A DNA stretch of 64,000 nucleotides from an uncultured Bacteroidales bacterium (GTDB lineage: Bacteria; Bacteroidota; Bacteroidia; Bacteroidales; Paludibacteraceae): positions 1,095 to 65,094 of the forward strand of contig CALEPS010000188.1 of NCBI GenBank assembly GCA_937910305.1, read 5' to 3'. The position numbers and the translations under genes are program-made. Below, piece after piece: positions 391 through 41,000 of the stretch. Under the pieces are notes generated by a model that was not told the origin of the DNA, did not search any database, and saw only the letters and a list, made by a program, of their open reading frames with translations. How positions within the stretch are numbered: position 1 is the stretch's first letter; each line of letters opens with the position of its first letter.

Positions 391-535
391 CTTTCAAACC
401 ATCGCTTTCATGTTAATACTACGCCTGTTCGTGTGAGCCCAAAATGCCCCACCATCGAAAAAGCGGACAAAATTACTACAAAATTTTGATATACGCAAGA
501 AATATGCGTTTTTTTTCATTTTTTTCCGCATTTTA

Positions 536-567
536 TTTGCGCGCGTGAATATTTTTTCGTACCTTTG
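536..567 (+). promoter_or_regulatory. Bacteroidetes-type promoter (TTTG-N20-TAccTTTG) for the 613 lipoprotein gene
   Basis: TTTG at 536-539, a 20-nt spacer, then TACCTTTG at 560-567, about 45 nt upstream of ATG 613. This matches the -33/-7 consensus described for Bacteroides. Confidence 0.6.
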
Positions 568-612
568 CACGTTATTTTTGAGTAAAAGCGTAAAATCTTA
601 AAATAATACAAT

Positions 613-1536: not shown

Positions 1537-1570
1537 ACGAGAAAGAAAAATTTAAATTAAATATACAAAA

Positions 1571-3568: not shown

Positions 3569-3613
3569 TCACGCGCGCGTATTATTAATAAGGAGAAGAA
3601 CATATCGCCTTGG

Positions 3614-4909: not shown

Positions 4910-4933
4910 AGAACTCACAAAAACGACAATCAA

Positions 4934-5641
4934 ATGAATTACAAACGTATTATCCCCGATGCCATCACAAGTTGCAACCTCCTGTGCGGCAGTATTGCAG
5001 TGTTTTTAGCCACTCAAGGTGCATTCATATGGGCTTTCGTCTTCATTTTAGCGGGAGCATTCTTTGACTTCTTCGACGGGCTGAGCGCGCGTTTGCTCAA
5101 GGCTCCAAGCCCCATTGGCATACAGTTGGACTCGTTGGCGGATGATATCACATTCGGCTTGGCTCCGGCGATGATGCTTTTCTGCTGGCTGAAACCTGTT
5201 TTAGGATGGTGGGCACTGATAGCTCTGCTGATGGCTGCTTTCTCCGCTTTGCGGCTGGCTAAATTCAATGTCGATGCACGGCAGCATGATTCGTTTATCG
5301 GTCTGGCTACTCCTGCCAATGCCATCTTCTGGGGCGGTTTATGCAGCATGCCGTATGCTATGATTGCCTACGACTGGATAGGATGGTGTCTGTTGGGACT
5401 TTCTATCGTCAGCTGCTACCTGCTGAACGCTGAGATACCGTTCTTCAGTTTTAAGGGATTCAAGAAAGACAAGACTGTGATTATCAGTTTCCTGGTAGGT
5501 TGTGTCATCATCATCGGTTATTGCGTAACGAAAGCGATAATCGCCAAACATATTGAGTTTGCGCTTTTCAGCGGTACGGGATGTATATTATGGTACGTGA
5601 TGCTGAATATACTTTTGGCGTTCGTTCCGAAGGAGAAATAA
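4934..5641 (+). CDS. pssA: CDP-alcohol phosphatidyltransferase (phosphatidylserine synthase type)
   Basis: CDP-alcohol phosphatidyltransferase motif DGLSARLLKAPSPIGIQLDSLADDITFG (D-G-x2-A-R...G-x3-D-x3-D) in a multi-TM protein of 235 aa. Confidence 0.8.
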   Translation: MNYKRIIPDAITSCNLLCGSIAVFLATQGAFIWAFVFILAGAFFDFFDGLSARLLKAPSPIGIQLDSLADDITFGLAPAMMLFCWLKPVLGWWALIALLMAAFSALRLAKFNVDARQHDSFIGLATPANAIFWGGLCSMPYAMIAYDWIGWCLLGLSIVSCYLLNAEIPFFSFKGFKKDKTVIISFLVGCVIIIGYCVTKAIIAKHIEFALFSGTGCILWYVMLNILLAFVPKEK

Positions 5642-5778
5642 TGTACTATTTTTAAGATTTTGCCTGCTACGAGCGACTTACGACTCACTTACGGGACGAA
5701 AGCGAGACAAAACCGACACAAAATAAGCCCTTTAATGGCCTAAAAAATGTACGATTATTAAGATTTAACCCTTTTGCC

Positions 5779-7572: not shown

Positions 7573-7679
7573 GTGTGTCAATTTTTCTACATTTTCCGCG
7601 GAAATGTGCACGCGCGCGTAAAAGAAATTGTGTAACTTTGCAGCGTTTTTGATTGAACACATTTAACACACAAATCAAT

Positions 7680-10331: not shown

Positions 10332-10356
10332 ATCTAACGGATAGGAGAACACTGAT

Positions 10357-12540: not shown

Positions 12541-12591
12541 CACATAGCCAAATCAGACTAGCGAGACACTAACGAGAGACTACCGGACAGG

Positions 12592-12619
12592 GAGGATCTC
12601 GAGAGGATCTCGAGAGGAT
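12592..12619. repeat. 11-bp tandem repeat (AGGATCTCGAG) x2.5
   Basis: Read directly in the intergenic region upstream of the 12635 gene: aggatctcgag aggatctcgag aggata. Confidence 0.85.
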
Positions 12620-12634
12620 ATAAACACTACATAT

Positions 12635-15421: not shown

Positions 15422-15430
15422 CACCTCCCT

Positions 15431-16096
15431 GTGAAAACATTATTCAAACAAAACACCGTCTTTATATCGCTAAGCCTGATACTTCTCGTAGTATTGGGCT
15501 TAGCCCTTCTTTATATCCCGCAGGGCGAATTGCATCTGCTGCTATGCAATCACCACACGCACGCGCGCGATATATTCTATAGGTACTACACGCGAATAGC
15601 AGAGTGGTTTCCATATGCTGTATGTATAGGACTTTTGCTCTTTAGCCGGATTGGGAACGGTGTTTTTGCTTCTGCGGCAATGCTTCTCTCCTCTCTTACC
15701 ACGCAACTGCTAAAACATATCTTCAATGCTCCGCGCCCCGTTACATGGTTTGCTACCAACATGCCGGATGTACAATTGCCGCTTGTGGAAGGCGTAAAAA
15801 TGAATTATTGGTATTCCTTCCCTTCGGGACATACCACGAGTTTTTTTGCATTGGCATTGGTAGTAAGTATAGTTGCGTCACAAAAATGGCCCAAAATGGC
15901 ATCATACATCCAGATCCTGCTCTTTGTATTAGCTATGTTAGGCGGTTATAGCCGGATTTATCTGAGTCAGCATTTCGCCGGAGATGTGTTTGCCGGTATC
16001 CTTGTTGGCTTACTAATAACGGCGGTCTGTTATGCTATCTTTTACCGTTTTGAGGAGAAAAAATGGTACAATTACCGTCTTTTTCAAAAAAAATGA
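15431..16096 (+). CDS. PAP2-family (acid phosphatase/undecaprenyl-diphosphatase-like) membrane phosphatase
   Basis: All three PAP2 motifs are present: KHIFNAPRP, PSGHT and SRIYLSQHFAGDV. Confidence 0.85.
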   Translation: MKTLFKQNTVFISLSLILLVVLGLALLYIPQGELHLLLCNHHTHARDIFYRYYTRIAEWFPYAVCIGLLLFSRIGNGVFASAAMLLSSLTTQLLKHIFNAPRPVTWFATNMPDVQLPLVEGVKMNYWYSFPSGHTTSFFALALVVSIVASQKWPKMASYIQILLFVLAMLGGYSRIYLSQHFAGDVFAGILVGLLITAVCYAIFYRFEEKKWYNYRLFQKK

Positions 16097-16125
16097 GGGG
16101 TAAAGTGCATTTTTTTTCAAAAAAA

Positions 16126-16157
16126 TTTGGTCATATCAAAAAAAAGCAGTACCTTTG
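16126..16157 (+). promoter_or_regulatory. consensus promoter (TTTG-N20-TACCTTTG) for tRNA-Val
   Basis: TTTG at 16126-16129, a 20-nt spacer, then TACCTTTG at 16150-16157. The tRNA starts 21 nt downstream. Confidence 0.6.
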
Positions 16158-16177
16158 CACCCGCTTTTGAAAAGCAA

Positions 16178-16252
16178 GGGCGTTTAGCTCAGCTGGTTTA
16201 GAGCATCTGCCTTACAAGCAGAGGGTCTGCGGTTCGAATCCGTAAACGCCCA
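16178..16252 (+). tRNA. tRNA-Val (anticodon UAC)
   Basis: A 75-nt cloverleaf folded by hand. Acceptor stem GGGCGTT/AACGCCC, D arm GCTC-AGCTGGTTTA-GAGC, anticodon arm TCTGC-CTTACAA-GCAGA (anticodon TAC), T arm with TTCGAAT loop, discriminator A. Confidence 0.9.
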
Positions 16253-16269
16253 CAAGATTAAAGCACACG

Positions 16270-16310: not shown

Positions 16311-16324
16311 TTTGTCACAGTTAG

Positions 16325-16435
16325 TTGCACTCTTATTGCACTCCTCCGTAAACGGCTTATTTACAAACAACTACCTTTTTACTACTCTTTTACTACATTT
16401 TTGTAGATTTCAAAAAGAGTGCAAAAAAAGTGCAA
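16325..16435. promoter_or_regulatory. four TTGCACT(C/T) sites in a 2+2 inverted arrangement upstream of the integrase gene
   Basis: TTGCACTC at 16325-16332 and 16336-16343 (11-bp spacing). The inverted copies are GAGTGCAA at 16417-16424 and AAGTGCAA at 16428-16435 (11-bp spacing). They are candidate integrase arm-type sites or an operator. Confidence 0.4.
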
Positions 16436-16449
16436 CTAATTTTAACACT

Positions 16450-17655
16450 ATGGCAAAAGTATCAATCATTCTCGACAAGAGAAACGCCGACAAACAAGGT
16501 CGGTTTCCAATCAAGCTGCGCATTAGCGCACAGAGTTCTAACACCTCCGTCTCCACGAATGTCTATATACGCGCGTGTGATTATTTAGGGGAACGCGAGC
16601 ACGCGGTTGCGCGTGCGTGCGCGAATGCTAAGCAGATCAACAAGGACATCAGTGAACTGTACTATCAGTATTTGAGTGCTATCATGGAACTGGAGCGCAG
16701 CGGCAGGCTAACAACTATGTCTGCTTCTGACATACGCGATTACGTGGATAAGCAAAAGGAGTTCACCAGCGAAAGGACATTCACCTCCTGTGTGAATGAA
16801 TACAAAGAATCTTGCCGGGCAGATAAGACCAAGCAGACATACGACTACACTCTTCAGATGATGGAGCGATTCAAGGGAAAGCAAAAGTTCTTTTTTGAAG
16901 AGATTGATTTTATGTTTCTAACGGAGTTTGAGCGTTGGATGGAAAACAACGGCATCGGCATGTCAAGCCGCAGCATCGTATTCCGAAATATGCGTACTAT
17001 TTTTAACTGGGCTATCAACAACGACTGGATCAATATGCAGACCTACCCTTTCCGCAAGTTCAAAATCAAACAGGGGAAAAAAGCAAAGGAGTATCTACCA
17101 GTGGAAAAGATGCGCGAGTTACTATCACTCAACCTTACCGGTTATAACGAAAAAGGGCTGGCATTGGCGCGTGATTTCTTTGTGCTTTCGTTCCTGTTCT
17201 GCGGAATAAACCCGATAGACCTCTATAATCTGCCTGCGCAAAAAGACAAAATCACGTTCATCCGACAGAAGATGGCACACCGCGAGCCGGAACCGATACA
17301 AATTGGCATCCAGCCGGAGACGCTGTATCTGATCAGCGAGTACATGGGGAGCAACTACCTGCTTAACTTTGCCGAGAAATACATATCTTTCGACAATTTC
17401 TACCACTTCCTGAAACACCGTATCAAGAAACTTGGAAATATGATCAAGTGTCCGGGGCTGACGCTGTATTGGGCGCGGTACTCATGGGCAACCTACGCAA
17501 GCAAAATTGATGTACCGGATAGCACCATCAGTAAGGCACTTGGGCACGCAGACGCCACTCTTGCAGAAAGAAGATATGAAGTGTATGATTGGTCTAAGGT
17601 TGACAAAGCTAACCGGCGCGTGATAGATTACGTGCTCTACGGAAAGATGGAATAA
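16450..17655 (+). CDS. tyrosine recombinase / phage integrase
   Basis: The start MAKVSIILDKRNADKQGRFPIKLRIS is a Bacteroidetes-type integrase arm-binding N-terminus. The C-terminal catalytic region reads ...LTLYWARYSWATYA...ALGHADATLAERRYEVY. ATG 16450 is preferred over the upstream TTG 16312. Confidence 0.9.
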   Translation: MAKVSIILDKRNADKQGRFPIKLRISAQSSNTSVSTNVYIRACDYLGEREHAVARACANAKQINKDISELYYQYLSAIMELERSGRLTTMSASDIRDYVDKQKEFTSERTFTSCVNEYKESCRADKTKQTYDYTLQMMERFKGKQKFFFEEIDFMFLTEFERWMENNGIGMSSRSIVFRNMRTIFNWAINNDWINMQTYPFRKFKIKQGKKAKEYLPVEKMRELLSLNLTGYNEKGLALARDFFVLSFLFCGINPIDLYNLPAQKDKITFIRQKMAHREPEPIQIGIQPETLYLISEYMGSNYLLNFAEKYISFDNFYHFLKHRIKKLGNMIKCPGLTLYWARYSWATYASKIDVPDSTISKALGHADATLAERRYEVYDWSKVDKANRRVIDYVLYGKME

Positions 17656-17686: not shown

Positions 17687-17739
17687 CCAACATCATTGTT
17701 CCCGTAGGGGAACTGGCGTTTTAGTTTAATTTCCGAGTG

Positions 17740-17771
17740 CAAAGGTACTACATTTTTTCGGAATATACAAA
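17740..17771 (-). promoter_or_regulatory. consensus promoter on the minus strand (TTTG-N20-TACCTTTG) pointing at the 17659-17686 terminator
   Basis: On the + text, CAAAGGTA at 17740-17747 and CAAA at 17768-17771 are separated by exactly 20 nt. Confidence 0.5.
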
Positions 17772-20747: not shown

Positions 20748-20840
20748 AGTTGTAATAATGATTTGATTGTTTTACATAGTGTCTTTGTGCGCACTTTCAA
20801 AAGACGGTGCAAAGGTACTGCTTTTCGCGGAGGTGGTGAA

Positions 20841-21146: not shown

Positions 21147-21155
21147 ACGCTAAAA

Positions 21156-21187
21156 TTTGTGTATTTCAAAAATTTGTTGTACCTTTG
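21156..21187 (+). promoter_or_regulatory. consensus promoter (TTTG-N20-TACCTTTG) on the + strand, antisense to the flanking genes
   Basis: TTTG at 21156-21159, a 20-nt spacer, then TACCTTTG at 21180-21187. It faces a 150-nt stretch with three perfect 9-10 bp hairpins. Confidence 0.45.
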
Positions 21188-21348
21188 CACTCGCAGACAA
21201 TAAAATAAGCGAGTCACATTCGTACAACAGGGTATAACTATATACTCTCTGTCGTGGTGAATGTGACTCACCTTTGTCTATCGCCGCCTTGTCTGCAAAC
21301 TTACCGGCGATAGGAGGCAGAGAGTTTTTTCCTCTCTGCCGGTTATTA

Positions 21349-23388
21349 TTATAGGCTTGGTTGTTGACTTGGTCGTTGCATAGCCGCAGCACGGTCCTGT
21401 GCCTGTTGGATAAGAGCCTGCTGTTGGTCTTGTGGCGTAGAGGGTTGCTGCATAACCGCAACACCTTGCATGGCTGCCTGTTGCTGCGTCACTGCCTCAG
21501 CCTGCTCTTCTTCCTCTGCTTTAATGAGTTCAAGCATGTGGTCTGCAAAGTAGGAAGAACTACATGACAGATAGGTCTTCAGGCTAATCAGTTTGTTTAG
21601 CAATAAGAACTGAAGCGTTTGCTCATTCTGTGCCCGGAAGATACCTTGTGTTTCGCTTTCTACCAACGAAAGATCAAAACGACAGTTACGTACTTTATCA
21701 GCATCGAACCATTTGCTCTCCTCACGATAGTTCTTGCCTGCAATATTGATATGCCGCACGCCCTCGTAATACTGCTGGATCACCATCATAATCTTATAGT
21801 CACGTTTGGCTATCAGACCGTTGTACCAATCTACAATATCCGCGATGTTATTGTTGCTATTCTCGGACATCTGCGCATAGAGCGACGATGGTGTGCCGCT
21901 TTTCGGAGCCTCGCCACGTATTGAACCGTTATTGCCTGACAGTTTGTCTATTAGCGCCAGACAGTCTTGCGGCGTTCGCTCGTCCACCATATTATTTGAA
22001 TTATTAACAAACGGCTTGAATATCTCCTCTCCTTCTTCCCATTCGAGTTCTGCGATAGCTGCCGGGTCTGTATAGATAGCAGCAAACTCCTCTTTGGTTA
22101 CGTTGCTCCGCTGTAAAATTTTTCTGTTAACGGCTCCTGAACCTTTGGCTTGGTTCATGCGGATATAGCGGTTGCTGGTTAATGTGGAATTGTAGATGCG
22201 TTGGATGTTAATCAGTCGTTCTACTAGCGAATGGATCTTGCCGTGACGCAGTGGATAAGCACCAATAACAAACGGATGTGAACCGTGGGTATAGGGTGTT
22301 ATCTCCTCTTTCAGCACATAACCGCCCGGTGTCAGATAGCGTACTACCCATTTCTTCTGACATCGATAGCCTACAAACTCAATCAGCGACGCATCTTCCG
22401 GATTACCACCTGCCTCTACCATCTCCTTGATGCGGCGGTTGTTCTCGGCTATAATGTCCGGGTCGTTCTTGTCGTCCGTCAGTATCTCCTCGCCTTTCTT
22501 GATATCATGGAAGAGAAATCCATCCTCCTCTCCCTCTATCATCTCCAGCGTCCATATCTCGATTACACGGCAATGCTCTGGCTCCAGAGGATGGAAGAAA
22601 TCAATGAAATACTTGCTCTTGTCTTTGTTAAACTGCTGATGAGCTATATAGGCGTTCTTGCTGTCACGATAGAGATCGGCTATTATCTCGCGCTCTGCCT
22701 TGCTGTTAGCGAACTGCGTCTGCACATCAATCAGCGGCATGTCGTGCAGATAACCGATACAGGTGATGTTCTCGAAATACAAGCCGGAGGTGTTGCTGTC
22801 CCACGCCATGCGGTTTAACTCGCACTGCGTTACTCTCACATCGCTTGTGTTCCGCTCGTCATCCCTATCATAACCCACACGGAAAGCAGCTACGCCGGAA
22901 CTCAGGAACTCCTCATAAGCACGGGCATTGATCTTCTGCAGTTTCTGCGCCTCATAGACATACTCCATCGCTATCGTCATCATCTCGCCCAACTTCTGCT
23001 CGTCGCGGTCGCGGGAGATAACCAGCGGTTCCATGTGATTGCGGACATACAGGCCGACAATGTTAGTCACAGGTTCTGCGATGATATTCACAGCCATCGG
23101 CACCATGCCCTGACTGCGGATATAATCCTCTTCTGTCATATCGCCGCATCCGTTAGGGTTGGGGATGCGGTCCGAGAATTGGTCGCCGGACAGATAGCGG
23201 TCACACCGCTCCCAGTTGTCACGAAGCGTTTGCAAACTGTCGTAGTAACGATGAAAACGGTCTAATAATTCCGTCATCTTCCGCAACTTGATGTCAGCCG
23301 CAGCACCGGCAGGCCTGCTACCGTCCGCGTTGGGTAGCAGATTGCGCCGCGTGAATTTCCTGTAGTTGTTTTTGGTTATCTTGCTCAT
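21349..23388 (-). CDS. portal protein (P22 gp1-like)
   Basis: At 679 aa, SSGVAAFRVGYDRDDE...RMAWDSNTSG parallels the P22 portal EAGVGAWRLVTDYED...VIWDSNSK. The Q-rich helical C-terminus resembles the P22 portal barrel. Confidence 0.7.
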   Translation of the reverse strand: MSKITKNNYRKFTRRNLLPNADGSRPAGAAADIKLRKMTELLDRFHRYYDSLQTLRDNWERCDRYLSGDQFSDRIPNPNGCGDMTEEDYIRSQGMVPMAVNIIAEPVTNIVGLYVRNHMEPLVISRDRDEQKLGEMMTIAMEYVYEAQKLQKINARAYEEFLSSGVAAFRVGYDRDDERNTSDVRVTQCELNRMAWDSNTSGLYFENITCIGYLHDMPLIDVQTQFANSKAEREIIADLYRDSKNAYIAHQQFNKDKSKYFIDFFHPLEPEHCRVIEIWTLEMIEGEEDGFLFHDIKKGEEILTDDKNDPDIIAENNRRIKEMVEAGGNPEDASLIEFVGYRCQKKWVVRYLTPGGYVLKEEITPYTHGSHPFVIGAYPLRHGKIHSLVERLINIQRIYNSTLTSNRYIRMNQAKGSGAVNRKILQRSNVTKEEFAAIYTDPAAIAELEWEEGEEIFKPFVNNSNNMVDERTPQDCLALIDKLSGNNGSIRGEAPKSGTPSSLYAQMSENSNNNIADIVDWYNGLIAKRDYKIMMVIQQYYEGVRHINIAGKNYREESKWFDADKVRNCRFDLSLVESETQGIFRAQNEQTLQFLLLNKLISLKTYLSCSSSYFADHMLELIKAEEEEQAEAVTQQQAAMQGVAVMQQPSTPQDQQQALIQQAQDRAAAMQRPSQQPSL

Positions 23389-23871: not shown

Positions 23872-24273
23872 TCACTCCTTCTTTTTATTGTTATCAAATA
23901 TCTCTGCATGAGTTTCGTATCCGCGCTCGTCAAATCGGTGCGGCGGATTACGCTTGTCGCAGTTCGGCCGTGTGCAATAATACCAACACAACTGCTCGAT
24001 TCGCAAGTCTTTCTTGGAGTTCGCGTCTCTCAATTGGTCGCGCTCGGCATAGAGTTCTCGCTTCTCCGCGCTCTTCTGCTCACACTTGGCGTGTTCCTGC
24101 TCGTATAGTCCGCGCCACGCAGCTGCCTGTGTCAGTTCGTTATCAATAGCAGCTTTCTCCACTTCTTTCTGCTTGAGGGCTCTATTCTCGCGCCAAAAGA
24201 AGATACCAACGCCACCACCGATCAGTCCGACGATGGTAGTAATAATCTGCAATGCAATCTCGATCTGGCTCAT
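23872..24273 (-). CDS. membrane-anchored coiled-coil protein (i-spanin- or holin-like lysis protein)
   Basis: N-terminal TM segment IALQIITTIVGLIGGGVGIFFW followed by a charged helical region. It lies adjacent to the endolysin gene. Confidence 0.4.
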   Translation of the reverse strand: MSQIEIALQIITTIVGLIGGGVGIFFWRENRALKQKEVEKAAIDNELTQAAAWRGLYEQEHAKCEQKSAEKRELYAERDQLRDANSKKDLRIEQLCWYYCTRPNCDKRNPPHRFDERGYETHAEIFDNNKKKE

Positions 24274-24578
24274 CAGTTGCCTCCTTCCTCAAACTGCTTG
24301 CGATACATCCAGCGAACCCAGAACGGACAATGGTCGAGGAGAAAGTCAATACGGTCTTTCATGTCTCTTGAAGTAATGTAAAGCTTATCAAAAAGTGATC
24401 TCTGCTCTGCATACTTAGCCTTCCACTCGTCACGCTCTTTCTCGACACGGCAGTAATTGTCTTGCGCAGTCTGCACAAGAATTTCTTTCTCTTTTTGCAA
24501 CTCGGCATTCTTAGCCTCCAACGCAGCGTACTTCTCTTTCAGCAGCTCGTAGCCGCTCTTGTGTTTTCTCTCTGACAT
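24273..24578 (-). CDS. hypothetical coiled-coil protein
   Basis: A 101-aa K/E-rich helical ORF. Its stop overlaps the start of the next gene. Confidence 0.4.
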   Translation of the reverse strand: MSERKHKSGYELLKEKYAALEAKNAELQKEKEILVQTAQDNYCRVEKERDEWKAKYAEQRSLFDKLYITSRDMKDRIDFLLDHCPFWVRWMYRKQFEEGGN

Positions 24579-24624
24579 AGTTATTAAAATTTTTATTGTT
24601 TTTCTTTAATAGTGGTAAGCGTTA

Positions 24625-25191
24625 TTAAAGTTTTATCCCATAGAATTTAAGTACTACCCTTGCCACGTTCCAGACGAAGACAAGGCAAATGATGACGATG
24701 AACGCCACGCCGCAGTAATAGACGAAATCCTTCTGCTTCTCCACCTTGACTATCGTCTTGGTGGTGTTATTGCGGATGATGCTATCCTGCCAAGCGATGA
24801 TGTTCAGCAGGCTATCCTCCTTGCAATCGAAGTCTATTTGTAGTCCATTTGTAGTGCCTTTTGTAGTGTTCTTTGTAGTGTTCTTTGTAGTAACACTCGG
24901 CACAATACGTCTGCCTTGCTCGATTGTCAGTTCACGCAGGACAACGTTATAAGCACTATCGCACTCCAGGAGAGCCATAGCACTTGCGCTATCGGCTTCT
25001 GTTATAATGGTCGTATCGTGGTGATGCACCTCTACAATGCGCTCGGTTTCTTGTCCGGCTATGTACTGGCTTTTGCAGCCGCCGAAGAAGATGCAGCACA
25101 GGACGGTCAGTACCACTGCCACGATGACTGCCAAGCAGCCGTGTTTGGGGTCGCGGTAGTCATCGCCTAATATGTAGTTGCTATTAGTCAT
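24625..25191 (-). CDS. lipoprotein-like protein with C-terminal TM segment (unimolecular-spanin-like architecture)
   Basis: N-terminal hydrophobic segment ending FFGGC (lipobox-like). C-terminal TM segment YYCGVAFIVIICLVFVWNV. Internal TTKNTTKNTTKGTT is encoded by a 12-bp tandem repeat. Confidence 0.4.
   Translation of the reverse strand: MTNSNYILGDDYRDPKHGCLAVIVAVVLTVLCCIFFGGCKSQYIAGQETERIVEVHHHDTTIITEADSASAMALLECDSAYNVVLRELTIEQGRRIVPSVTTKNTTKNTTKGTTNGLQIDFDCKEDSLLNIIAWQDSIIRNNTTKTIVKVEKQKDFVYYCGVAFIVIICLVFVWNVARVVLKFYGIKL
24836..24894. repeat. 12-bp tandem repeat, 2 perfect plus about 3 degenerate copies, inside the 24625 gene
   Basis: GTTCTTTGTAGT occurs twice perfectly at 24868-24891, flanked by degenerate copies. 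It encodes the TTKN/TTKG/TTNG units. Confidence 0.85.
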
Positions 25192-25274
25192 ATTCTATCT
25201 ATTTTTTCTTAAACTCCGCCACCAGTCTGCTATTACTTTCATACACAATGAGCGATGGCGATTGGTAGATAACA

Positions 25275-25535
25275 TTACTCGGCTGTGTCTCCATAGCCAT
25301 AGTCGGCAGGGTTAAACGGCTCGTCGATGGAGTGAGTTCTACAGTACTCCTGCTGTAATCCCTTGAGTGTTTCAACAGGTGGAACGGTCGGAAACACCAC
25401 CTCTCCTACCTTGCTCAATCCACTGCCCGGTATCGGCTCAAAGCCGAAACGGAATAATACACCAGACGGCAACACGGCTTTACGCGGCGCGTTGCTTGGT
25501 ACTACGTTTTGATTTACTACGGTATTCATATTCAT
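25275..25535 (-). CDS. hypothetical protein
   Basis: An 86-aa ORF. Its 5' end overlaps the RT gene 3' end by 56 nt. Confidence 0.3.
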   Translation of the reverse strand: MNMNTVVNQNVVPSNAPRKAVLPSGVLFRFGFEPIPGSGLSKVGEVVFPTVPPVETLKGLQQEYCRTHSIDEPFNPADYGYGDTAE

Positions 25536-26931
25536 ATAGTTTTTGTTGTTGTTTCAATTCTTGCAATTCTTTGATGCGGATATTCTTCGGTTTGTACTCA
25601 TTCTTTACCTCACAGACAATTTTTCCCCTCCTGTCCTCGAAATAGAGCCATTGTTTATAGTCGCTATCGAGTACCATCTGCATGAGCATTTTCTGTATGT
25701 TATAAGACCGACAATGACACATGAAACCTATATAGGAGTTGAAACTGCATTGTAACTTGTAGGCATTCTCCAGCGAACAATGTTCTATCGCAAGGCGTAT
25801 GTTATTCTTGCAGGCTCTTACTGTTCTATTCCCGATGTACATCCTGTCGGCGTATATTACACGCCCGCAGAATTGCACCCCGTGACGGACTGGCTGAATA
25901 TAGAACTTTGTCGGGTGCAACGTCAGCCCGAGCGAACTCAATATACGCTCCGATTCCTCTCTTACCTTACGTATGATGCCGGCATTCGCGGCAACTATAC
26001 ACATATCGTCCACGAACTGCGTAATCTTACAATCGAGACCAAGCGCAAGTATCGCCATCCCCCACAGTGCCAATATAAGATTGGCTATTAACTGCGAGAA
26101 GAAATTACCGATTGGCAAACCCTTACCGTCGTTACCAAATAAGGTCTTGCCCTGTACGATATTCTTCCATGCAGAAATCGGGCTGTGGCGCAAGCAGTCG
26201 CTTGTGGGGTCATGCGTGATATATACATACAGCAGTCGCAGCATCTCGCGCACTTCCTCGTCTGAATATCCTGCAGGCACGAACTTCTTGCTGAAATCGA
26301 CAAATACATCATAAGCCATGCTGCGCACGATATTCATAAAGAAGCCGCTAACGTCCATCGTGGCGACAACTCCGTCCGGGTATTCACGCAGGTTCTTTTG
26401 TATTTGCTCGGCGGCTGTCTGTGCGGAATGATTACACCTGTTACCGTGGCTGATATTACCATTGTGCTCATGTACCTTCTCCGATACAGACAGAATGAAT
26501 GGAGCGATAAGGTGATGACCTACACGGTCGCGATAGTTCGCAGCAAACACCTCTCTGTATCTCGGATAGTCAAGCACAAAGCAAACGCTTGTGCCGGGAA
26601 CGTAGATGTGATTCCGAATTTTATCCGCTAAATCAAAGATCTCTTTGAGGTTGTAATGAAACCTCGCGGCGTCGAAACGCCTTTTCTTATTCCTCCAACA
26701 ATAGCTCTCTGCTTCAAATAACAAGTCTAATAACCTATCTGATTCGGCGACCGGCACAACTGTGTATGTGTTGTTCTTATTGTTGTTGTTCACGTTCGCT
26801 GACGGAATCGCCACATAGTACGCGTTGTTGGCATTGTTCTGCTGGCACGTCCAGGAGTTGCCCGTCGGCAGAGTGCTGTGGTCGTCAAGACTCGCTGTAG
26901 GTGTAACTTGGTTATCAAGTGGAGTCTCCAT
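25480..26931 (-). CDS. DGR reverse transcriptase (5' boundary uncertain; the annotated ORF start includes the TR)
   Basis: RT motifs include REVFAANYRDRVGHHLI, the DGR-RT hallmark LPIGNFFSQLIANL ((I/L)GxxxSQ) and the catalytic QFVDDMCIVA. It sits immediately downstream of avd and TR. Confidence 0.9.
   Translation of the reverse strand: METPLDNQVTPTASLDDHSTLPTGNSWTCQQNNANNAYYVAIPSANVNNNNKNNTYTVVPVAESDRLLDLLFEAESYCWRNKKRRFDAARFHYNLKEIFDLADKIRNHIYVPGTSVCFVLDYPRYREVFAANYRDRVGHHLIAPFILSVSEKVHEHNGNISHGNRCNHSAQTAAEQIQKNLREYPDGVVATMDVSGFFMNIVRSMAYDVFVDFSKKFVPAGYSDEEVREMLRLLYVYITHDPTSDCLRHSPISAWKNIVQGKTLFGNDGKGLPIGNFFSQLIANLILALWGMAILALGLDCKITQFVDDMCIVAANAGIIRKVREESERILSSLGLTLHPTKFYIQPVRHGVQFCGRVIYADRMYIGNRTVRACKNNIRLAIEHCSLENAYKLQCSFNSYIGFMCHCRSYNIQKMLMQMVLDSDYKQWLYFEDRRGKIVCEVKNEYKPKNIRIKELQELKQQQKLYEYEYRSKSKRSTKQRAA
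26745..26882 (-). repeat. DGR template repeat (TR), 138 bp
   Basis: A 138-bp alignment with 27441-27578 shows 14 differences, and every one is at a TR adenine (T on the + text). The TR reading frame is AAC-rich (NNANN, NVNNNNKNN). Confidence 0.9.
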
Positions 26932-26969
26932 TATATAGATTATCGCACGCTCATTTCTCGTCCTTGGAC

Positions 26970-27368
26970 TTAATGACTCTGGCTCTTGGTGGCTGCAATA
27001 GCATGTAACTGATTTGCAATATCATCGCAAAGCATGTCTAATTCAGCACATACCTTTTCGCTCCATCCGCGCAATTCCATGATAAGATAGCATTGCGCTT
27101 GTATTTCTTCTATCAGTTCGATAGAACGCTTGAGATAGTCTTTCCCTTTCAGTTGGCGCATAGCATACGTAAACAGAACGCCTGCCTTTTCAAGTAGCGG
27201 ATAGAAATAGCATCTGCGGATGTCAACCGTCATCTGCTCCTCTCCGGCGGCGTTCTTGCGGTTGCGACCGTGCGGCAAAAGCCTGCCGTAGTAGGCTAAC
27301 TGCTTATTGAGATAAACTACCCTGTTAATGATGGGCGTTTTTACTGCTGACTTGTTACTGTATTGCAT
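26970..27368 (-). CDS. avd: accessory variability determinant (Avd)-like four-helix-bundle protein
   Basis: A 132-aa basic helical protein placed between the VR gene and TR/RT, exactly as in the Bordetella phage BPP-1 mtd-avd-TR-brt cassette. Confidence 0.7.
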   Translation of the reverse strand: MQYSNKSAVKTPIINRVVYLNKQLAYYGRLLPHGRNRKNAAGEEQMTVDIRRCYFYPLLEKAGVLFTYAMRQLKGKDYLKRSIELIEEIQAQCYLIMELRGWSEKVCAELDMLCDDIANQLHAIAATKSQSH

Positions 27369-27404
27369 GAGAGCGATTGGGAGTTAATGATATAACGAAG
27401 CCCC

Positions 27405-27421
27405 GCCGTGCCCCGCACGGC
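27405..27421 (-). promoter_or_regulatory. GC-rich hairpin just downstream of VR (candidate DGR target-recognition hairpin)
   Basis: GCCGTGC-CCC-GCACGGC, a 7-bp perfect stem extendable with one mismatch. It lies 12-28 nt beyond the stop codon of the VR gene. Confidence 0.45.
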
Positions 27422-27432
27422 AGAGCCTTTGG

Positions 27433-28584
27433 CTATAATGCGGCGACCGGCACAACTGTGTACGTGTAGTTCCTATTGGAGTTGGACACGTACGCTGACG
27501 GAATCGCCACATAGTACGCGACGTTGGCATTGTACTGCTGGCACGTCCAGGAGCCGCCCGTCGGCAGAGTGCTGCGGTGAGATGCGTACAGCAGTGTATT
27601 GATCTGCGAATAATACACGTACATCATCAATAAGTGATTAGTTGTGGGTAGTGTATATTGCCGTTCATCGCCTTCGTATGCCTTGTAATCCCACGCAAAT
27701 TCGGCTGCAGGCGCACCGGTGATATTATTTGCGGTGCGCGGCACTTGAAATCTGCGAACATATTGCACTCCATCCCAATAATACGACTGGTCAGTGGAGC
27801 TATCGGTTTCGTCATTTGTTACTATATACACCTGTTGATCATACATGAGATGTATTCCGCTTGCTTCCATCTCTGCCTTGGATGCAAACCGTACACATCC
27901 ATACTTACTGTAATCCTTATCCATGTCGGATGGGTCATAGTTCGTATGCGGCAACTTCTCCGGATTATAGAATAGTAAGATTCGGCGAGTATTCTCGTAC
28001 GACTCGAATATAAGAGAATTCTGAAGCACATCCAAAAACGAACCGACAGACTGCGCGTATAATCCGGGGACCAAATCAGTTGTATTAGCCCATTGCTTGG
28101 CTGTATATGCAGTACCTGCGACCAAAGGCACACCTATTACGAATGACTGATAGGGTGTGATAATTGCCGGCTGGGCTGGTTCCGGAGTGGTACCATGCTC
28201 ATCGATGTATTGTTGCCACTCGCCGGCTGAATAGTGAGTGCCGGATTTGCCAAGCAGGCACACCTCATACGAATGCGTGCCTATCGTGCTGACCAACTGT
28301 GCAAACTCAGCAAGCGTCGTGTCGTCCGTAACGGTAGCACCGGCATTGCGTAGAGCAGTGGCAATGGCGTTAATAGAGTTAAGGACGGCCTCCACTTTAG
28401 CTGTGGCGGTGGTGCCGATGACCTCACGATTACACTCATCGAGGGTTTCTTTAACCTGCGTCATCAGGTTTGAATTGTCAATGTTAGTGGTTACCCACGC
28501 CTTCATTGCTTGCCAGCAGCGGGTCATCATCTCATCCAACTGTTCACCTGTCACTACATTTACTATAGGATTTTCGTTTGCCAT
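27433..28584 (-). CDS. DGR variable target protein (probable receptor-binding / tail-fibre protein with C-terminal CLec-type variable domain)
   Basis: The C-terminus STLPTGGSWTCQQYNANVAYYVAIPSAYVSNSNRNYTYTVVPVAAL corresponds to the TR-encoded STLPTGNSWTCQQNNANNAYYVAIPSANVNNNNKNNTYTVVPVAE. Confidence 0.85.
   Translation of the reverse strand: MANENPIVNVVTGEQLDEMMTRCWQAMKAWVTTNIDNSNLMTQVKETLDECNREVIGTTATAKVEAVLNSINAIATALRNAGATVTDDTTLAEFAQLVSTIGTHSYEVCLLGKSGTHYSAGEWQQYIDEHGTTPEPAQPAIITPYQSFVIGVPLVAGTAYTAKQWANTTDLVPGLYAQSVGSFLDVLQNSLIFESYENTRRILLFYNPEKLPHTNYDPSDMDKDYSKYGCVRFASKAEMEASGIHLMYDQQVYIVTNDETDSSTDQSYYWDGVQYVRRFQVPRTANNITGAPAAEFAWDYKAYEGDERQYTLPTTNHLLMMYVYYSQINTLLYASHRSTLPTGGSWTCQQYNANVAYYVAIPSAYVSNSNRNYTYTVVPVAAL
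27441..27578 (-). repeat. DGR variable repeat (VR), 138 bp
   Basis: See the TR entry. VR occupies the last 46 codons of the 27433..28584 gene and ends 5 nt before its stop codon. Confidence 0.9.
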
Positions 28585-28586
28585 AA

Positions 28587-28832
28587 TTATGAATTGATTA
28601 CATGGTTAATAATAGTTTCTACTTGGTCATTGGTAAGTGGAATTGCCGGTACTGATTGCACAGCCGTCAGTATCTCCTGCGAGGTGCTCTCTTGGGCTAC
28701 AGTCGTGTCCAGTTTCTCCTCCACCGGCGTGAGGTCGATTTTAATGGCGGAGAACTTATTACTCAGCCATCTGCGGAAGAGGTGCAGAGTATAACTCCAC
28801 CTTCTATATGTCAGTATCTTTGCCATAGGCAA
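28587..28832 (-). CDS. hypothetical protein
   Basis: An 81-aa ORF tightly packed between structural-region genes. Confidence 0.4.
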   Translation of the reverse strand: MPMAKILTYRRWSYTLHLFRRWLSNKFSAIKIDLTPVEEKLDTTVAQESTSQEILTAVQSVPAIPLTNDQVETIINHVINS

Positions 28833-28838
28833 TTAGTA

Positions 28839-29660
28839 TTAACTAAAATAAGAGTTGGTGTCTGTTACCATAAAGTAGTCCGGATAATCTTGCGGTTGCA
28901 TTGTACCTTGCTCGGTTTGTATCTCCGCAGATAGTCTGTATCCGCAGAATGTCTCCAAATAGAAGTATATCATGCCCGATTCGCTCACATATGTATAATT
29001 ACATACTGCTGTGACTATATTAGGCCTACCACCTGTGGCGATTGCTATTTGACACGGAACTAACTTGCCGGGCATATGTGAACTAATGAAATTCTCTATA
29101 GCATTCTTTACTGTCGTGCTCTCATTGATAATAAAGTTATCTTGTGACTTTTCGAGTGGGAACGTAATATACTCATTTCCCATCTTCTCCATCAACTTAT
29201 TATTCATATAAGCATATCCCTCTTCTCGCAAATCGAAGACTGCACCGCTTGTGATAGCCTCCAAACTATCTTCTCTAATAGTGTCTGTCACGATTGGAAT
29301 CACACTTTTCCATTCGCTCCAATCGGAGTATGGGTCTGTATGATTCTCGTCATTGAACCTTCGTGAGCGTATAAACATACCGCTCTCGTCAATGGTGCAT
29401 TGCTCTACTACGTAACGTATGACATGTGTTACCGGATGTCTTAAAGTAAGATGACGCACTAACAGGAAATGGTTCGTCTCGATAGTAGTTCCTTCTTTCT
29501 TATACAACACCTGATGAATACCTGCGACAAGGATAGTGCCGATAATGTCGCTATTTCTGAAACTCGCTTCGTTATCGGTATATTTCTCTACTACGTTACC
29601 ACCGGACGGTAAGTTGACGTATTCTCCGTCACGTGTTATAAAACCTTTGATTTCTCTCAT
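28839..29660 (-). CDS. hypothetical virion/tail-region protein
   Basis: ORF with preferred start MREIKGFITRDGEYVNLPSGG at ATG 29660, which avoids overlap with the upstream gene. I recognised no motif. Confidence 0.45.
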   Translation of the reverse strand: MREIKGFITRDGEYVNLPSGGNVVEKYTDNEASFRNSDIIGTILVAGIHQVLYKKEGTTIETNHFLLVRHLTLRHPVTHVIRYVVEQCTIDESGMFIRSRRFNDENHTDPYSDWSEWKSVIPIVTDTIREDSLEAITSGAVFDLREEGYAYMNNKLMEKMGNEYITFPLEKSQDNFIINESTTVKNAIENFISSHMPGKLVPCQIAIATGGRPNIVTAVCNYTYVSESGMIYFYLETFCGYRLSAEIQTEQGTMQPQDYPDYFMVTDTNSYFS

Positions 29661-29679
29661 AATATATCGTTTTAATATG

Positions 29680-30009
29680 TTAATCACACATAAAATGCGC
29701 ATACCCGAATATGTCCACATCTATATTGAGAGGAATGTAGCCATCTTCGTCGATGTCCATAGAAGGAAGCCATATGTATTCTTCGTCCCATGTCTCTCCG
29801 TCGAACATCTGCTCTACTTCTCGCGGAGTAGGTTCTTCTATTTGGATATTTAACGCGGCTGCAATGAACTTATCCCGTGCTTCTTTCAGTTCTTTAATCA
29901 ACTCTTTATATTTGGTGATTAGAAGATCCAATTTGCTCGGCTTGATGTCTTGCGTATTGCAGCCGCAAGGCTGCCTGTTCGGGCCCTTATGGGTGATGTT
30001 ATGACTCAT
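29680..30009 (-). CDS. hypothetical protein
   Basis: A 109-aa ORF in the gene string. Confidence 0.4.
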   Translation of the reverse strand: MSHNITHKGPNRQPCGCNTQDIKPSKLDLLITKYKELIKELKEARDKFIAAALNIQIEEPTPREVEQMFDGETWDEEYIWLPSMDIDEDGYIPLNIDVDIFGYAHFMCD

Positions 30010-31923: not shown

Positions 31924-33330
31924 TTAAGGGGTCGGACGATTGCCGTCGTGGAAAATCCACAGGGCATGAGCCTTCGGGTACTTAACCACAGGAGCGGACA
32001 TCTCGCACCATACACGGCTATCGCCATCGTAAGTACCGGTCTTCTTCAACTCCAGTTTCGTCTCTTCCATCGAACGGAAGACGCGGCGCTCTACATACTG
32101 ACGGTCAAGAATCAATGCCCAGTTGCGATACAGGGTGCCGTTCTTGTCCATCTTGTCAAAGAGCGGGTGGTGATAGAAGCGGATCTTGTAACCCATCACA
32201 CCCATCTGAGAGAACTCATAGTTGAAGCCCTTGAACTCAGAGATAGTCACATTCTTGGTCACATCCTTGATACCCCAGATAGCCGGACCTACATTGCAAC
32301 CCATATAGCCGTAACGGGTATTGCTACCGCTGTTGCCGATATAGGTGTCGTTGAAGGCGGTCAGCAAGTCGGAGAACTCAAGGTCGCCCTTGTACAGATC
32401 GCATACGGTCGAACCGCCAAGCATCATCTGCTCAATGATACCGGAGCAGGTGCGTGTGTAGGTTTTCTCCGCAGGGTTGAAGGTATAGGACTTGACGGAG
32501 AACAGATACGATTTCTCGATATCCTCCATCAGCTGATGAACGATTACCTCATCCACATCGTCCTCTGTCCAGTTAACCTCTTTAGCGGACTGCTGGAAGA
32601 CAGCCGATACCTGAGACTGAACCATGAACTTCTGGATATACTGCTCATCCGGTTCCGGCAATGTGAACCACGGCGTGGTGCTTGCATCCTCTTCGGCAGC
32701 CGCATGTCCGAGGTTGGCGATGGTAGTGTTAGCTGCGATGGTCAACTCCTCGCCTGTCTTCGCGTTCAGGAACTGAACCGTAATGGTCGTTGCGTCTTTT
32801 ACCGCCACAACACGAGCGTTGAGGTTGACATGAGGAAGTTGGGCGAACACACCGTTCTTTACCTTGTAACCCGGAATACCGATGAACATAATCTGGTCGG
32901 TTGCGTCGAACACATAGGCATCCGCCACAGTAAGGTCTTGCGGTTTCGGAGTATTACGGTCAAGCGAATTACCGGGGAAGGTTTGAGCTGCATTTCCGGT
33001 TGCACCATCGGTCACACGGAGATCAACGCTCCAGTGTTTGAATACCGTTGAATTGGTCTTACGCGAACCCATGTCGCGCATCATTGCGTTGATAGGGGTC
33101 TGCGCCCAGCCCATCTTCACAATGTTCTCATCGCTTTCGTCACGGATGAGACCCGGAGCAATGGTTCGAGTAAGATCTTCACTCAATCCACGCCCTTCAT
33201 TGGCTTCTGTAGAGAATTTACCGGAGCCATGAATGCCCGCACCATCTGCCCCCTGAGCAGCGGTCTGAGCCATAGTTCCGCTACCAGGGTCTGTGCCCGG
33301 AGTAGCGGGATTAACATTTACTTCTGCCAT
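31924..33330 (-). CDS. major capsid protein (probable)
   Basis: A 468-aa ORF directly downstream of a scaffold-like acidic protein and followed by a hairpin. I could confirm no motif by eye. Confidence 0.55.
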   Translation of the reverse strand: MAEVNVNPATPGTDPGSGTMAQTAAQGADGAGIHGSGKFSTEANEGRGLSEDLTRTIAPGLIRDESDENIVKMGWAQTPINAMMRDMGSRKTNSTVFKHWSVDLRVTDGATGNAAQTFPGNSLDRNTPKPQDLTVADAYVFDATDQIMFIGIPGYKVKNGVFAQLPHVNLNARVVAVKDATTITVQFLNAKTGEELTIAANTTIANLGHAAAEEDASTTPWFTLPEPDEQYIQKFMVQSQVSAVFQQSAKEVNWTEDDVDEVIVHQLMEDIEKSYLFSVKSYTFNPAEKTYTRTCSGIIEQMMLGGSTVCDLYKGDLEFSDLLTAFNDTYIGNSGSNTRYGYMGCNVGPAIWGIKDVTKNVTISEFKGFNYEFSQMGVMGYKIRFYHHPLFDKMDKNGTLYRNWALILDRQYVERRVFRSMEETKLELKKTGTYDGDSRVWCEMSAPVVKYPKAHALWIFHDGNRPTP

Positions 33331-38040: not shown

Positions 38041-41000
38041 TTATTCCTCCTCCGGGTTATGCAACGCATCACGCTCGTTCAGCAGACGGTTGAAACGCTC
38101 CACGGCTTTCTCCTCTGCTTTCTCGGTGCTCTCCTCACCACGCATCCACCATGTCAGCGGTGCGGTATGCACTTTCTGATAACGGATATAATCCGCCAAC
38201 GCAGCATCATACTTTCTCTCGTCAGCTACCACGCGGTCAATCAGTTGTTGCTCGTACTGGCTCTGAGGAATACTCAGTAAGGCCTGCGAGATACGCAATG
38301 CCTGTTCCGCCGCGCTCAGTTCCTCCTCGCTGTCAATGGTAGTTACTATGCGTTGGATTACGTCTCCTGCCGTCTGCGGGTCAAAGCCGGTGCCGGACTG
38401 CATAGCCACCGACAGGGCTTGGTTGGCAAACTCGGCATATTTGTCGTTATCAAGATACTTACCTACACGTTTCACATCCTGCGTAAAAGGCAACTCGGGA
38501 GCGAACATGTCTGCTACGCTGCCATTACCATCCAACGCGCTCTCTATTACTCCGCCGCCCATCAGGCCCGTGAACGGACTGAACCATGCGCCGCCGGAAG
38601 TAGTATCGTCTATCAACTGCTTCTTCTTGTCGTCATCGTCGCCTAAGAGCAGATACGGCACCTGACCAACCAGCCGCCATAATAGATTAAGGAGTGCGCC
38701 ATAGACCACGAATCCGGCTATGTCGGAGCGGATGGACTTATTATAGTCCTTCTCCGCTGCCTTGCGTGCCTGCTCGTCCTTCAGTCCGTCGTTCTTGTAC
38801 TGACCCATACGGAAGGCTATCTGCTCTTCCTTGCTTCCTTTGCCGAACTTACGCAGCAGGTTACGGGTGTGGAATATGAAGTTTCTGGTGTACTGAATAG
38901 GAGAAGTGCGGAATACTGTAAGCGCTGCAGTATAGACGTTTCTATCCATCTGCACAGGAGACATGAACGCTCCCTCACTCGACTGCTGGCTGGTGTTAAA
39001 CGCCTGCTCGGAATCCTGACGGGCACGCTGCTCCGCCTGCTCTTGTGGATAACCTTTCTTCAGATACTCCGCCAAGCGGCTGTCATAAACCGCCCTCGCA
39101 CCGGTGGCGCAAGTCAGCGTATCGAAATACACATTGGCGGCCATTCCATATTTCTGACTCCACTCCAGCACGCGCTTGTTCCATTGCCAGTCGGTCGTGC
39201 GCTGCATCAACCGCATATCGCCCATATCCCTCTTGCTGACACGTTTCTCGAAGTTAGGCAGGTTCTCTCTTGCCCACTTCATCGTGCCGTGAGGGGTCAT
39301 CCAGTTACGCAGATACGAACCTACAAACACACCATCGGTCATATACGTGAAGAACGCAGGGAAGGAAGCAATCTGCTTCAATGCCGTCCATATACGGAAG
39401 TTAATCTTCGCGCTCGTCACTCCCTTAGCTATATTCAGAGTAATCTCAGATGGCTGATCCGTCTTAGGCTTATACGTACCTATCGCTACGCGGAAAGCGT
39501 CCTTCATATAGTTATAGAGTTGGTCGCCACTACCATAGATAGTGCCGTTCATCCCCTTGATGCGGTTGCGGAAATTGATGTCCGAGAACAGGATATTAGC
39601 GTCCCGGTTCCATTGGGCAAACGCGTTCCAACGCTCCATCTGTGCGATATGACGGATAACCTCTTGGAAGAAATCAGCATTCCTTACATCCAACGGCAGG
39701 CTGTTCTTGGTACGACGTTTGATAGCGCCGGTGCTTGTGCCTGCCAACAGACGCGCTGCATCCGTATCGGGTTCGCTCAAATCCTCGTTCTGCTGACGCG
39801 CAGCGGCATTGATGCGCAGCGGGAAGTAGTTCTCTATCGCGTCCATCGGAGCACCAAACAACGCCTCATGCGTCGGATTATAGCGGTTACGCAGCTGCGA
39901 GAAGAACTCTCGCTGTACCCAGTCCACTACATCCAGTATCTCCTGACCGAACTGCTCACGCACCTTATCCGTCAATGCTTTCACATCGTCCTCGGTGATA
40001 TTCATGCCGGCTAACTTCATACGGCCGTCATTCATCTTGTTTACCGCATAGATATAGAGCGCATTGCCAGCACTCAGCGGGATATCCTCCATTACCGGCA
40101 TATCCTTACCGTCCACACCGTTGAGCATGGTCACGGTGAACATATTATGGCTGGCATCGTTAATCTTACGCGCTGCCTCTTCCCATGTCTTGTACTTGCC
40201 GTGTGTCAGTTCGGATATCTTCTCGTCCAGCGTCTTCGATGCCGCTACAATGCCGGTGTACTCTTGGTCGGCTGCGTCCATCCAACCGCGCATGAAGTGG
40301 TTATACAGATAACCCTCGCCGTCCGGGGCGTGCAGACCCGTCAGCCGCAGCAACGACTGCAGGTCGCGTATCGGGGAAGCAATAGCATCCCACATCTGAC
40401 GCGCTATAGCACCTCTGGTGCGGTTGCGGTTCGGATTGGTTGCCAGCCCCTCCAAGTCACGCTGTGCATAACTGCGTATCTTGTCGCGGTTAGCGCCCTG
40501 ACGGCGGATGAAGTCCTTGGCGCGAACTTCCTGAGTCGATACATACTCTTGCAGGTCACGGGTGGACTGCATGTAAGCATCGGCTTGGTCAAGATCGTTA
40601 TCACGCATGGCTTGTTTGATACTTTCTACAAGTTGCTTGCGTGCAGCAGGCTTAAGAGCCATATTGCCTTGCGCTTTCTTTAACTCCAAATCCAACTGCT
40701 TGCGCTCTTCCTGGATGTGCTGAATGCGCTCCAAATATTGAGCGGCTATCTCATAACCTATCCACTGACCTTTATACTGCAACTTCTGGCTCTCGTCCGT
40801 AGCATTATCCTCCATCTGCATCAGTTGGTCAATCAAACCATCTACCTCCTTATTCGGGTCGGTATGGTCGCCACGAAGCGTTAAGAGTGTTATGCCATTC
40901 TCCGGGTCGAGTACTTCATTGAGAGCTTTGAGGGCGTGCTGTCCTTCCAACGCCACCTTACCCTGCATTACTACGCCGCTGATGTTTATCTTGTCAATCG

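Follow-up and report, generated by a model that had tools for sequence, protein, structure and literature searches.

A diversity-generating retroelement in a prophage of an uncultured Bacteroidales bacterium, with adenine-directed variation among its natural relatives

Within a prophage of an uncultured Bacteroidales bacterium of the family Paludibacteraceae lies a diversity-generating retroelement (DGR), which is described here from a 64,000-nucleotide stretch of contig CALEPS010000188.1 (GenBank assembly GCA_937910305.1); this whole stretch is referred to as the window, and all positions are those of the window unless a related locus is named. The components of the element all lie on the minus strand, in the order target gene with its variable region (VR), avd-like gene, template region (TR) and reverse transcriptase (RT), just as an earlier note made from the letters of the DNA had proposed. 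From the upstream boundary to the small gene at the downstream end, the features are as follows.

28585-28649, minus strand: upstream junction of the cassette, made up of the final ~21 codons of the upstream gene (...PAIPLTNDQVETIINHVINS)
27433-28584, minus strand: DGR target gene, 383 aa (amino acids), with the C-terminal end ...GGSWTCQQYNANVAYYVAIPSAYVSNSNRNYTYTVVPVAAL
27441-27578, minus strand: VR, 138 nt (nucleotides), the last 46 codons of the target
27441-27456, minus strand: invariant GC-rich 3' end of the VR, resembling an initiation of mutagenic homing (IMH) sequence, GTTGTGCCGGTCGCCG
27403-27434, minus strand: two small inverted repeats past the VR, a candidate counterpart of the target-recognition hairpin/cruciform of phage BPP-1
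26970-27368, minus strand: avd-like accessory gene, 132 aa, a predicted four-helix bundle
26745-26882, minus strand: TR, 138 nt, with 43 adenines and 10 AAC plus 2 AAT codons
25480-26760, minus strand: DGR reverse transcriptase, counted from the TR 3' end, where similarity to RTs begins; the mechanical open reading frame (ORF) reaches back to an ATG at 26931
25275-25535, minus strand: conserved 86-aa gene that accompanies the cassette, with an overlap of 56 nt with the RT 3' end

VR and TR align over 138 columns without a gap and differ at 14 of them, and at all 14 of these mismatches the TR base, read in the coding sense, is an adenine. As adenines account for 43 of the 138 nucleotides of TR, the probability that 14 random mismatches would all fall on A is (43/138)^14, or about 8e-8. 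The same pair, as 26742-26882 and 27438-27578, was recovered by an independent repeat search of positions 24000-30000, which returned no other long direct repeat, and a sensitive BLAST search with TR revealed neither a further TR copy nor a second VR in the whole 64-kb window. In the frame of the target, TR contains 10 AAC and 2 AAT codons and only a single codon (AAG) that can be mutated to a stop. Both the coordinates and the adenine-specific mismatches given in the earlier note were thus reproduced, as was its observation that TR is rich in AAC, and VR occupies the 3' end of a coding target, as expected of a DGR.

The evidence for activity comes from natural relatives of the element. The DNA of close and more distant metagenomic relatives of the target was compared, and ten related loci, designated here by L numbers, were examined. 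Every one of them possesses its own VR/TR pair with mismatches on TR adenines. In eight loci, with 7-15 mismatches each, the adenine-only rule has no exception; the exceptions are one extra C/T difference in L011 and a few indels or non-A changes in L004 and L006. Over the seven loci whose cassettes are 93-97% identical, VR varies in 33 of the 43 columns that hold a TR adenine, as against 5 of the 95 others (Fisher p = 8e-18), so that the population-level variation at TR adenines for which the earlier note had suggested looking is both present and strong. The TRs, by comparison, hardly differ from one relative to the next, with variation in 7 of 138 columns, and at the non-A positions each VR agrees with the TR of its own locus. 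Because the VRs track their own TR in this way, information flows from TR to VR, as homing predicts.

The same pattern is evident at the protein level, where nine homologue clusters are 93-96% identical to the window target and the differences are concentrated in residues 337-376. Among 14 proteins that are at least 93% identical, 23 of the 27 codons that contain an A vary, but none of the 18 A-free codons do so. Diversification is therefore ongoing in natural populations at the TR-adenine sites, against a nearly constant TR. Moreover, three groups share an identical 336-aa scaffold yet differ in VR, from which it follows that the lineage diversified very recently.

The two repeats close with the same GC-rich sequence, GTTGTGCCGGTCGCCG, and their homology ends right there, with VR running on as CATTATAG and TR as AATCAGAT. 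This IMH-like end is invariant across the relatives, except for one G/A change that is mirrored in the cognate TR. Of the two inverted repeats beyond it, the first (AGCC-AAA-GGCT) overlaps the stop codon of the target, and the second is a GC-rich hairpin of 7-9 bp (GCCGTGC-GGG-GCACGGC, 27403-27423) located 20 nt beyond the VR end. The hairpin is present after VR but missing after TR, and the GC stem is retained in relatives with other loops, namely GGTA in L002, L008 and L009 and GGCA in L004. A succession of IMH and GC-rich inverted repeat is the arrangement known from BPP-1 and Legionella (PMC5758913). Folding of the TR RNA together with its flanks gave no signal over shuffled sequences (z = -0.69), and no DGR-RNA structure is therefore proposed. 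It was also observed that some relatives (L002, 4710-5159; L008; L009, 4711-5160; and L010) carry an extra gene of 149 aa between the post-VR hairpin and avd, with the loop GGTA where the window has GGG; this gene has no Pfam match.

The RT frame at 25480-26931 (483 aa) contains LPIGNFFSQ and FVDD, the instances of the (I/L)GxxxSQ and FVDD motifs to which the earlier note had drawn attention. It matches the reverse transcriptase family phrog_1423 strongly (E 2e-48) and RVT_1 weakly (E 1.6e-6, just below the gathering score). The one PDB entry matched by its sequence is 8ub7 (E 1e-6), a 'Reverse transcriptase' of 328 aa, which we take, from its length and sequence, to be the Bordetella bRT, the accession not having been found in the preprint text. 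In the alignment of the two proteins, IGNFFSQ pairs with IGSLTSQ, FVDD with YMDD and DVSGFF with DFSKFF, and an arginine of the window RT pairs with Arg74. The alignment also speaks to the inactivated RT that the earlier note had named as grounds for doubt: the protein is full-length and every catalytic residue, including the catalytic aspartates, is retained. The motif [I/V/L]GxxxSQ, in place of QGxxxSP, is the signature of DGR RTs, and its first residue and Arg74 promote the misincorporation at adenines (PMC7826257). The nearest RTs in deposited phage genomes are those of the Bacteroides phages F2, F4 and Bacuni_F1, with 33% identity over 90% of the protein. Classification as a retron or group II intron RT was rejected, given a TIGR04416 score of 57 bits against a cut-off of 300 and the presence of the DGR motif and of the TR/VR pair.

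The frame of 483 aa is a mechanical ORF that crosses TR in frame from the ATG at 26931, and since the resemblance to other RTs sets in only at the 3' end of TR, the true start of the protein is uncertain; the candidates are a GTG in the last 16 nt of TR, a TTG just past TR, and the upstream ATG. TR lies in the RT frame, with an upstream ATG, in the window and in L001, L003, L004 and L009, as well as in the unrelated L006. There is no non-coding spacer between TR and RT, similarity to RTs starting within a few codons of the TR end. In BPP-1, a non-coding spacer of 140 nt provides the priming adenosine (bioRxiv 10.1101/2023.10.23.563531). As a separate observation, the RT of a close relative, L007 (5154-6449), is called at 431 aa as compared with 483 aa, and may be a truncated or inactivated copy.

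The 132-aa protein encoded between VR and TR had been described in the earlier note as Avd-like. At the level of sequence this description found no support, as there was no significant match in Pfam, NCBIfam, PHROGs, the PDB searched by phmmer, or the PDB searched with a 29-member profile, and only 2 of 29 relatives touched PF05635 faintly (E 0.05). The predicted fold, however, agrees with it. The AlphaFold model, with a mean predicted local distance difference test score (pLDDT) of 87, contains helices at residues 12-28, 50-73, 79-98 and 104-130, and the top Foldseek matches of this model are the PF05635-family bundles 2gsc and 2rld together with the Bordetella phage Avd, 4dwl_D. On the latter, the model superposes with template modelling (TM) scores of 0.68 normalised to the query (TMq) and 0.82 normalised to the matched structure (TMt), at a root-mean-square deviation (rmsd) of 2.1 Å. 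On the grounds of this modelled fold and of its position between VR and TR, the protein is accepted as Avd-like.

For the target, the AlphaFold model (pLDDT 82.4) predicts helices in the N-terminal part (residues ~13-103), then a middle section rich in beta structure, and lastly a compact C-terminal domain that bears VR. No sequence match was found in Pfam, NCBIfam or the PDB, and the sole PHROG match is to a family of unknown function (E 0.003). The best PDB fold match is the C-terminal domain of Legionella Lcl, 8q4e (probability 1.00, TMt 0.53, rmsd 2.6 Å), followed by weaker matches to C-type lectins from snake venom and to that of LOX-1; as the Foldseek query was the model of all 383 residues, scores for the C-terminal domain are diluted. 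Mtd and TvpA, variable proteins of known DGRs, were not among the top 50 PDB matches of this whole-protein model. Among viral structures in BFVD, the best match is a DUF1566 protein of the uncultured crAss-like phage cr10_1 (E 1.6e-7); an annotated tail fibre is matched over ~280 columns (TMq 0.40), and there is a weak match to a 'Receptor Binding Protein'. The 8q4e and DUF1566 matches both place VR on a domain of predicted C-type-lectin-like fold, and in conjunction with profile matches among the relatives they support assigning the target C-terminus to the C-type-lectin domains of DUF1566/Lcl_C type. The structure prediction that the earlier note had recommended therefore agrees with its suggestion of a CLec-type variable domain.

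Homology of the target to Mtd or to any tail-fibre family was sought in Pfam, NCBIfam, the PDB and PHROG and by tblastn in phage genomes, and none was found; a search of IMG/VR likewise returned no relative. The homologues fall into 82 clusters in public metagenomes, all of them unnamed or 'hypothetical', and relatives occur in metagenome-assembled genomes (MAGs) of Bacteroidales and Paludibacteraceae. In one Bacteroidaceae MAG contig (L005, 2708-4777), two short DUF1566-type target-like genes of 265 and 256 aa, ending ...YWSSTE...VRAV, stand in tandem and are followed by a 122-aa helical protein, which looks like a different, two-target DGR.

The genomic surroundings agree with the earlier note in placing the element within a prophage. 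Positions 1-16100 of the window are host chromosome, with SurA-like, MFS, CDP-alcohol phosphatidyltransferase, endonuclease I, OmpA-family and PAP2 genes, and phage genes, among them those for a P22-like portal, a terminase-like protein and a holin-like protein, then reach to at least 63.7 kb. The landmarks of this region are listed below.

16178-16253, plus strand: tRNA-Val(TAC), directly upstream of the integrase
16312-17655, plus strand: tyrosine integrase, which with tRNA-Val marks the left prophage junction
21349-23388: P22-like portal gene
31924-33330: candidate capsid gene
38041-54435, minus strand: giant phage 'polyvalent protein', 5464 aa, with ddrB-ParB, PBECR5 nuclease and ART-PolyVal (ADP-ribosyltransferase) domains

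The target gene, on the minus strand, is thus situated between the candidate capsid gene and the portal gene, that is, in the virion-structural module. The portal shares 30% identity with its counterparts in the Bacteroides temperate phages BF1-TP2, BKO1-TP3 and BS-TP4, and the BF1-TP2 genome has the same layout of capsid gene, portal and giant protein; no DGR was found in a 30-kb stretch around the BF1-TP2 portal. Giant ORFs occur also in related contigs, as in L009 and as gp68 of BF1-TP2.

A search of the remaining window for an attachment-site (att) repeat of the tRNA-Val region yielded only matches to a repeated promoter-like motif, and the right end of the prophage for that reason probably lies beyond base 64000. 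The repeated motif is a sequence of 25-31 nt, AAAAGCAGTACCTTTGCACCCGC, with the Bacteroidetes -7 motif TAnnTTTG, found at 16142-16172, 17734-17758, 20795-20825 and 21152-21194; one copy lies upstream of the host tRNA-Val and three within the prophage, on both strands. The -7 motif is absent from the minus strand between 34123 and 23671, which suggests that the cassette is probably co-transcribed with the late structural operon. Rfam matches were limited to tRNA. In the host portion, two paralogous large genes on the plus strand (7653-10331 and 12635-15421), with IgGFc_binding and PKD domains, flank an OmpA-family gene and probably encode surface proteins.

Together, the anatomy of the locus, the restriction of VR/TR differences to adenines and the variation among relatives indicate that the prophage next to tRNA-Val harbours a functional, or very recently functional, DGR, to which we assign a probability of about 0.93. 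Ordinary duplication or gene conversion, with the differences falling on adenines by chance, would explain the existence of a direct repeat and nothing more. It would leave unexplained the 14 of 14 mismatches on A, with their chance probability of ~8e-8, the repetition of the adenine bias in ten independent loci, and the adjacency of a DGR-type RT and an Avd-like protein, and its probability is accordingly negligible. A decayed or dormant DGR, in which the differences are relics and diversification has ended in this prophage, is a more serious competitor, albeit a very improbable one. The window does display only a single VR state, the RT of L007 is called shorter and is perhaps truncated, and L011, L004 and L006 contain the few non-A differences or indels mentioned above. 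Against dormancy, however, the RT, avd, TR and hairpin of the window are all intact, there is not one non-A difference between its VR and TR of the kind that inactivation would let accumulate, and relatives with identical scaffolds differ in VR, which points to very recent diversification of the lineage.

Several results nevertheless count against a functional DGR of this composition, or against parts of it. The VR of the window is a single snapshot of this strain. The evidence for Avd is confined to the fold, and Foldseek E-values for four-helix bundles are weak (0.02-0.3 here). The GC hairpin reaches a marginal z-score of -1.7, calculated from a single sequence. In the absence of a non-coding spacer between TR and RT, the priming element, if any, must be inside the RT-coding sequence; priming in the manner of BPP-1 is an assumption. 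As regards the target, 41 of 59 relatives match the Pfam family Lcl_C (PF07603, formerly DUF1566), but these matches are sub-threshold or modest, the best having an E-value of 6.5e-5, and the target of the window itself has no match to PF07603 even at E <= 10; nor did the target find a tblastn match among 50,697 phage records.

It is also conceivable that the DGR is active but that its target does not bind a host receptor, and serves instead as a virion decoration or adhesin for mucus or other glycans, or as a non-structural protein, with host range unchanged. The lack of any tail-fibre family match, the short length of the target (383 aa) among unannotated neighbours, and the occurrence of DUF1566/Lcl_C domains on bacterial adhesins such as Legionella Lcl are all compatible with this alternative. 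Conversely, the gene sits in the virion-structural module, from capsid candidate to portal, its model aligns over ~280 columns with viral proteins that include an annotated tail fibre (TMq 0.40) and weakly with a 'Receptor Binding Protein', and BPP-1 provides the precedent of a diversified C-type-lectin tail-fibre tip (PMC5758913). A target without receptor-binding function is thus unlikely, at odds well short of even. From gene position, fold and the analogy with BPP-1, the target would instead be a receptor-binding protein through which the phage could retarget its host range, as the earlier note had also suggested.

The mechanism by which such a DGR would operate can be drawn up by analogy with BPP-1. 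TR and its flanks would be transcribed, and the RT, complexed with the Avd-like protein, would reverse-transcribe the TR RNA from a primed start while misincorporating opposite adenines. The mutagenised cDNA would then be integrated in place of VR at the target 3' end, presumably guided by the downstream hairpin and by the invariant, GC-rich repeat end. With the scaffold left unchanged, this process might re-randomise as many as 27 codons of the lectin domain's ligand-binding face (43 adenines, or some 10^23 protein variants), and altered binding of a receptor or glycan could in turn permit tropism switching.

The relatives also show that the cassette is portable. At the nucleotide level, the window resembles L001, L002 and L009 (93-97%) only within positions 25295-28649, or ~3.35 kb (3436-6790 in L001). 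In these contigs, the sampled genes on either side of the cassette gave no tblastn match to any part of the 64-kb window, except for the C-terminal ~22 residues of the upstream protein and for the small ORF downstream; the L001-type flanks are in turn unlike the L009-type flanks. At least three genomic contexts are represented. Similarity breaks off within the final ~21 codons of the upstream gene on one side and at the 3' end of the small downstream gene on the other, and the upstream-gene tail is also conserved in other phage contigs, where the rest of the upstream protein is unrelated. Relative to the window, L004 shows 91-97% identity in avd, RT and the small ORF, against 59% in the target. 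The shared cassette on differing flanks therefore identifies a mosaic module that is exchanged between phage backbones, with targets swapped on a conserved avd-TR-RT core. Megablast with the cassette as query gave no match in the 50,697 phage records. That DGRs are transferred horizontally and that their targets turn over faster has already been described in general terms (PMC5758913), and the exchange of this cassette refines known DGR behaviour without adding a new principle.

The 86-aa protein encoded at the downstream end is 91-97% identical in L001, L003, L004 and L009 and has no Pfam match. In its own frame, codon changes amount to 21-25 synonymous against 7 non-synonymous, whereas the other frames yield 1-2 synonymous changes; judged by these counts, the ORF is under purifying selection, and it may be an additional gene of the cassette. 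These observations can be combined into a wider, tentative proposal. The ~3.35 kb from the upstream tail to the 86-aa gene would constitute a self-contained, horizontally exchanged, plug-in tropism module that passes, by way of conserved junctions, between phage backbones whose sampled flanks show no similarity to one another; the fusion of TR to the RT frame would imply either that RNA elements of the BPP-1 type reside in RT-coding sequence or that TR encodes an N-terminal extension of the RT; and the 86-aa protein would be a possible DGR accessory factor. As a joint statement this proposal is somewhat doubtful, although not to be dismissed.

The value of the locus is that it offers a clean, natural and active DGR in an uncultured Bacteroidales prophage lineage with almost no annotated genes, and that it marks the 383-aa target as the likely ligand-binding protein of this phage group. 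Its metagenomic relatives, with the same scaffolds and differing VRs, furnish a ready-made picture of diversification, and the swapping of whole cassettes should be useful in annotating gut and rumen viromes and in choosing a compact DGR for engineering.

In the scheme of Wu et al. 2018 (PMC5758913), the order target-VR, avd, TR, RT is architecture B1, family B being the commonest, and the target class corresponds to CLec2, or category 'd'. The system resembles that of BPP-1 (mtd-avd-TR-brt) in this B1 gene order, in VR/TR differences that affect A only, in a VR at the 3' end of a structural-module gene with a tip of (here predicted) C-type-lectin fold, in the [I/V/L]GxxxSQ motif and Arg74 equivalent of the RT, in the four-helix bundle modelled for the Avd-like protein, and in a GC-rich repeat end followed by a hairpin. 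It differs in that the RT is ~90 residues longer than 8ub7 (E 1e-6) and has FVDD rather than YMDD as its catalytic motif, and in that the target lacks sequence similarity to Mtd and is of the DUF1566/Lcl_C (CLec2) rather than the Mtd/CLec1 class. Furthermore, TR abuts or overlaps the RT ORF, in contrast to the 140-nt non-coding spacer of BPP-1, and the host belongs to the Bacteroidales.

With the DGR of Legionella pneumophila, whose target is LdtA, the element shares a variable domain of predicted DUF1566/Lcl_C class, an avd-TR-RT architecture and a post-VR hairpin. Yet LdtA is a bacterial outer-membrane lipoprotein encoded on a genomic island, whereas the present target is a prophage structural-module protein, in the N-terminal sequence of which no lipoprotein signal was noted.

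The closest deposited phage RTs belong to the DGR of the Bacteroides uniformis phages Bacuni_F1, F2 and F4 (PMC8143477), yet the identity is only 33%. Like the DGRs of other Bacteroidales phages (Bacuni, Hankyphage (PMC6199706) and crAss-like phages), which are gut phages with putative tail or adhesion proteins as targets, the present element is paired with a target of probable binding function; it is set apart from them by a target that has no tblastn match in the 50,697 phage records, and by a different backbone. That DGRs abound in Bacteroidales and their phages is well documented (PMC6199706, PMC8143477, bioRxiv 10.1101/2024.11.15.621889), and the DGR described here is a good example of this well-known system rather than a new kind, one that leaves the understanding of the DGR mechanism as it stands.

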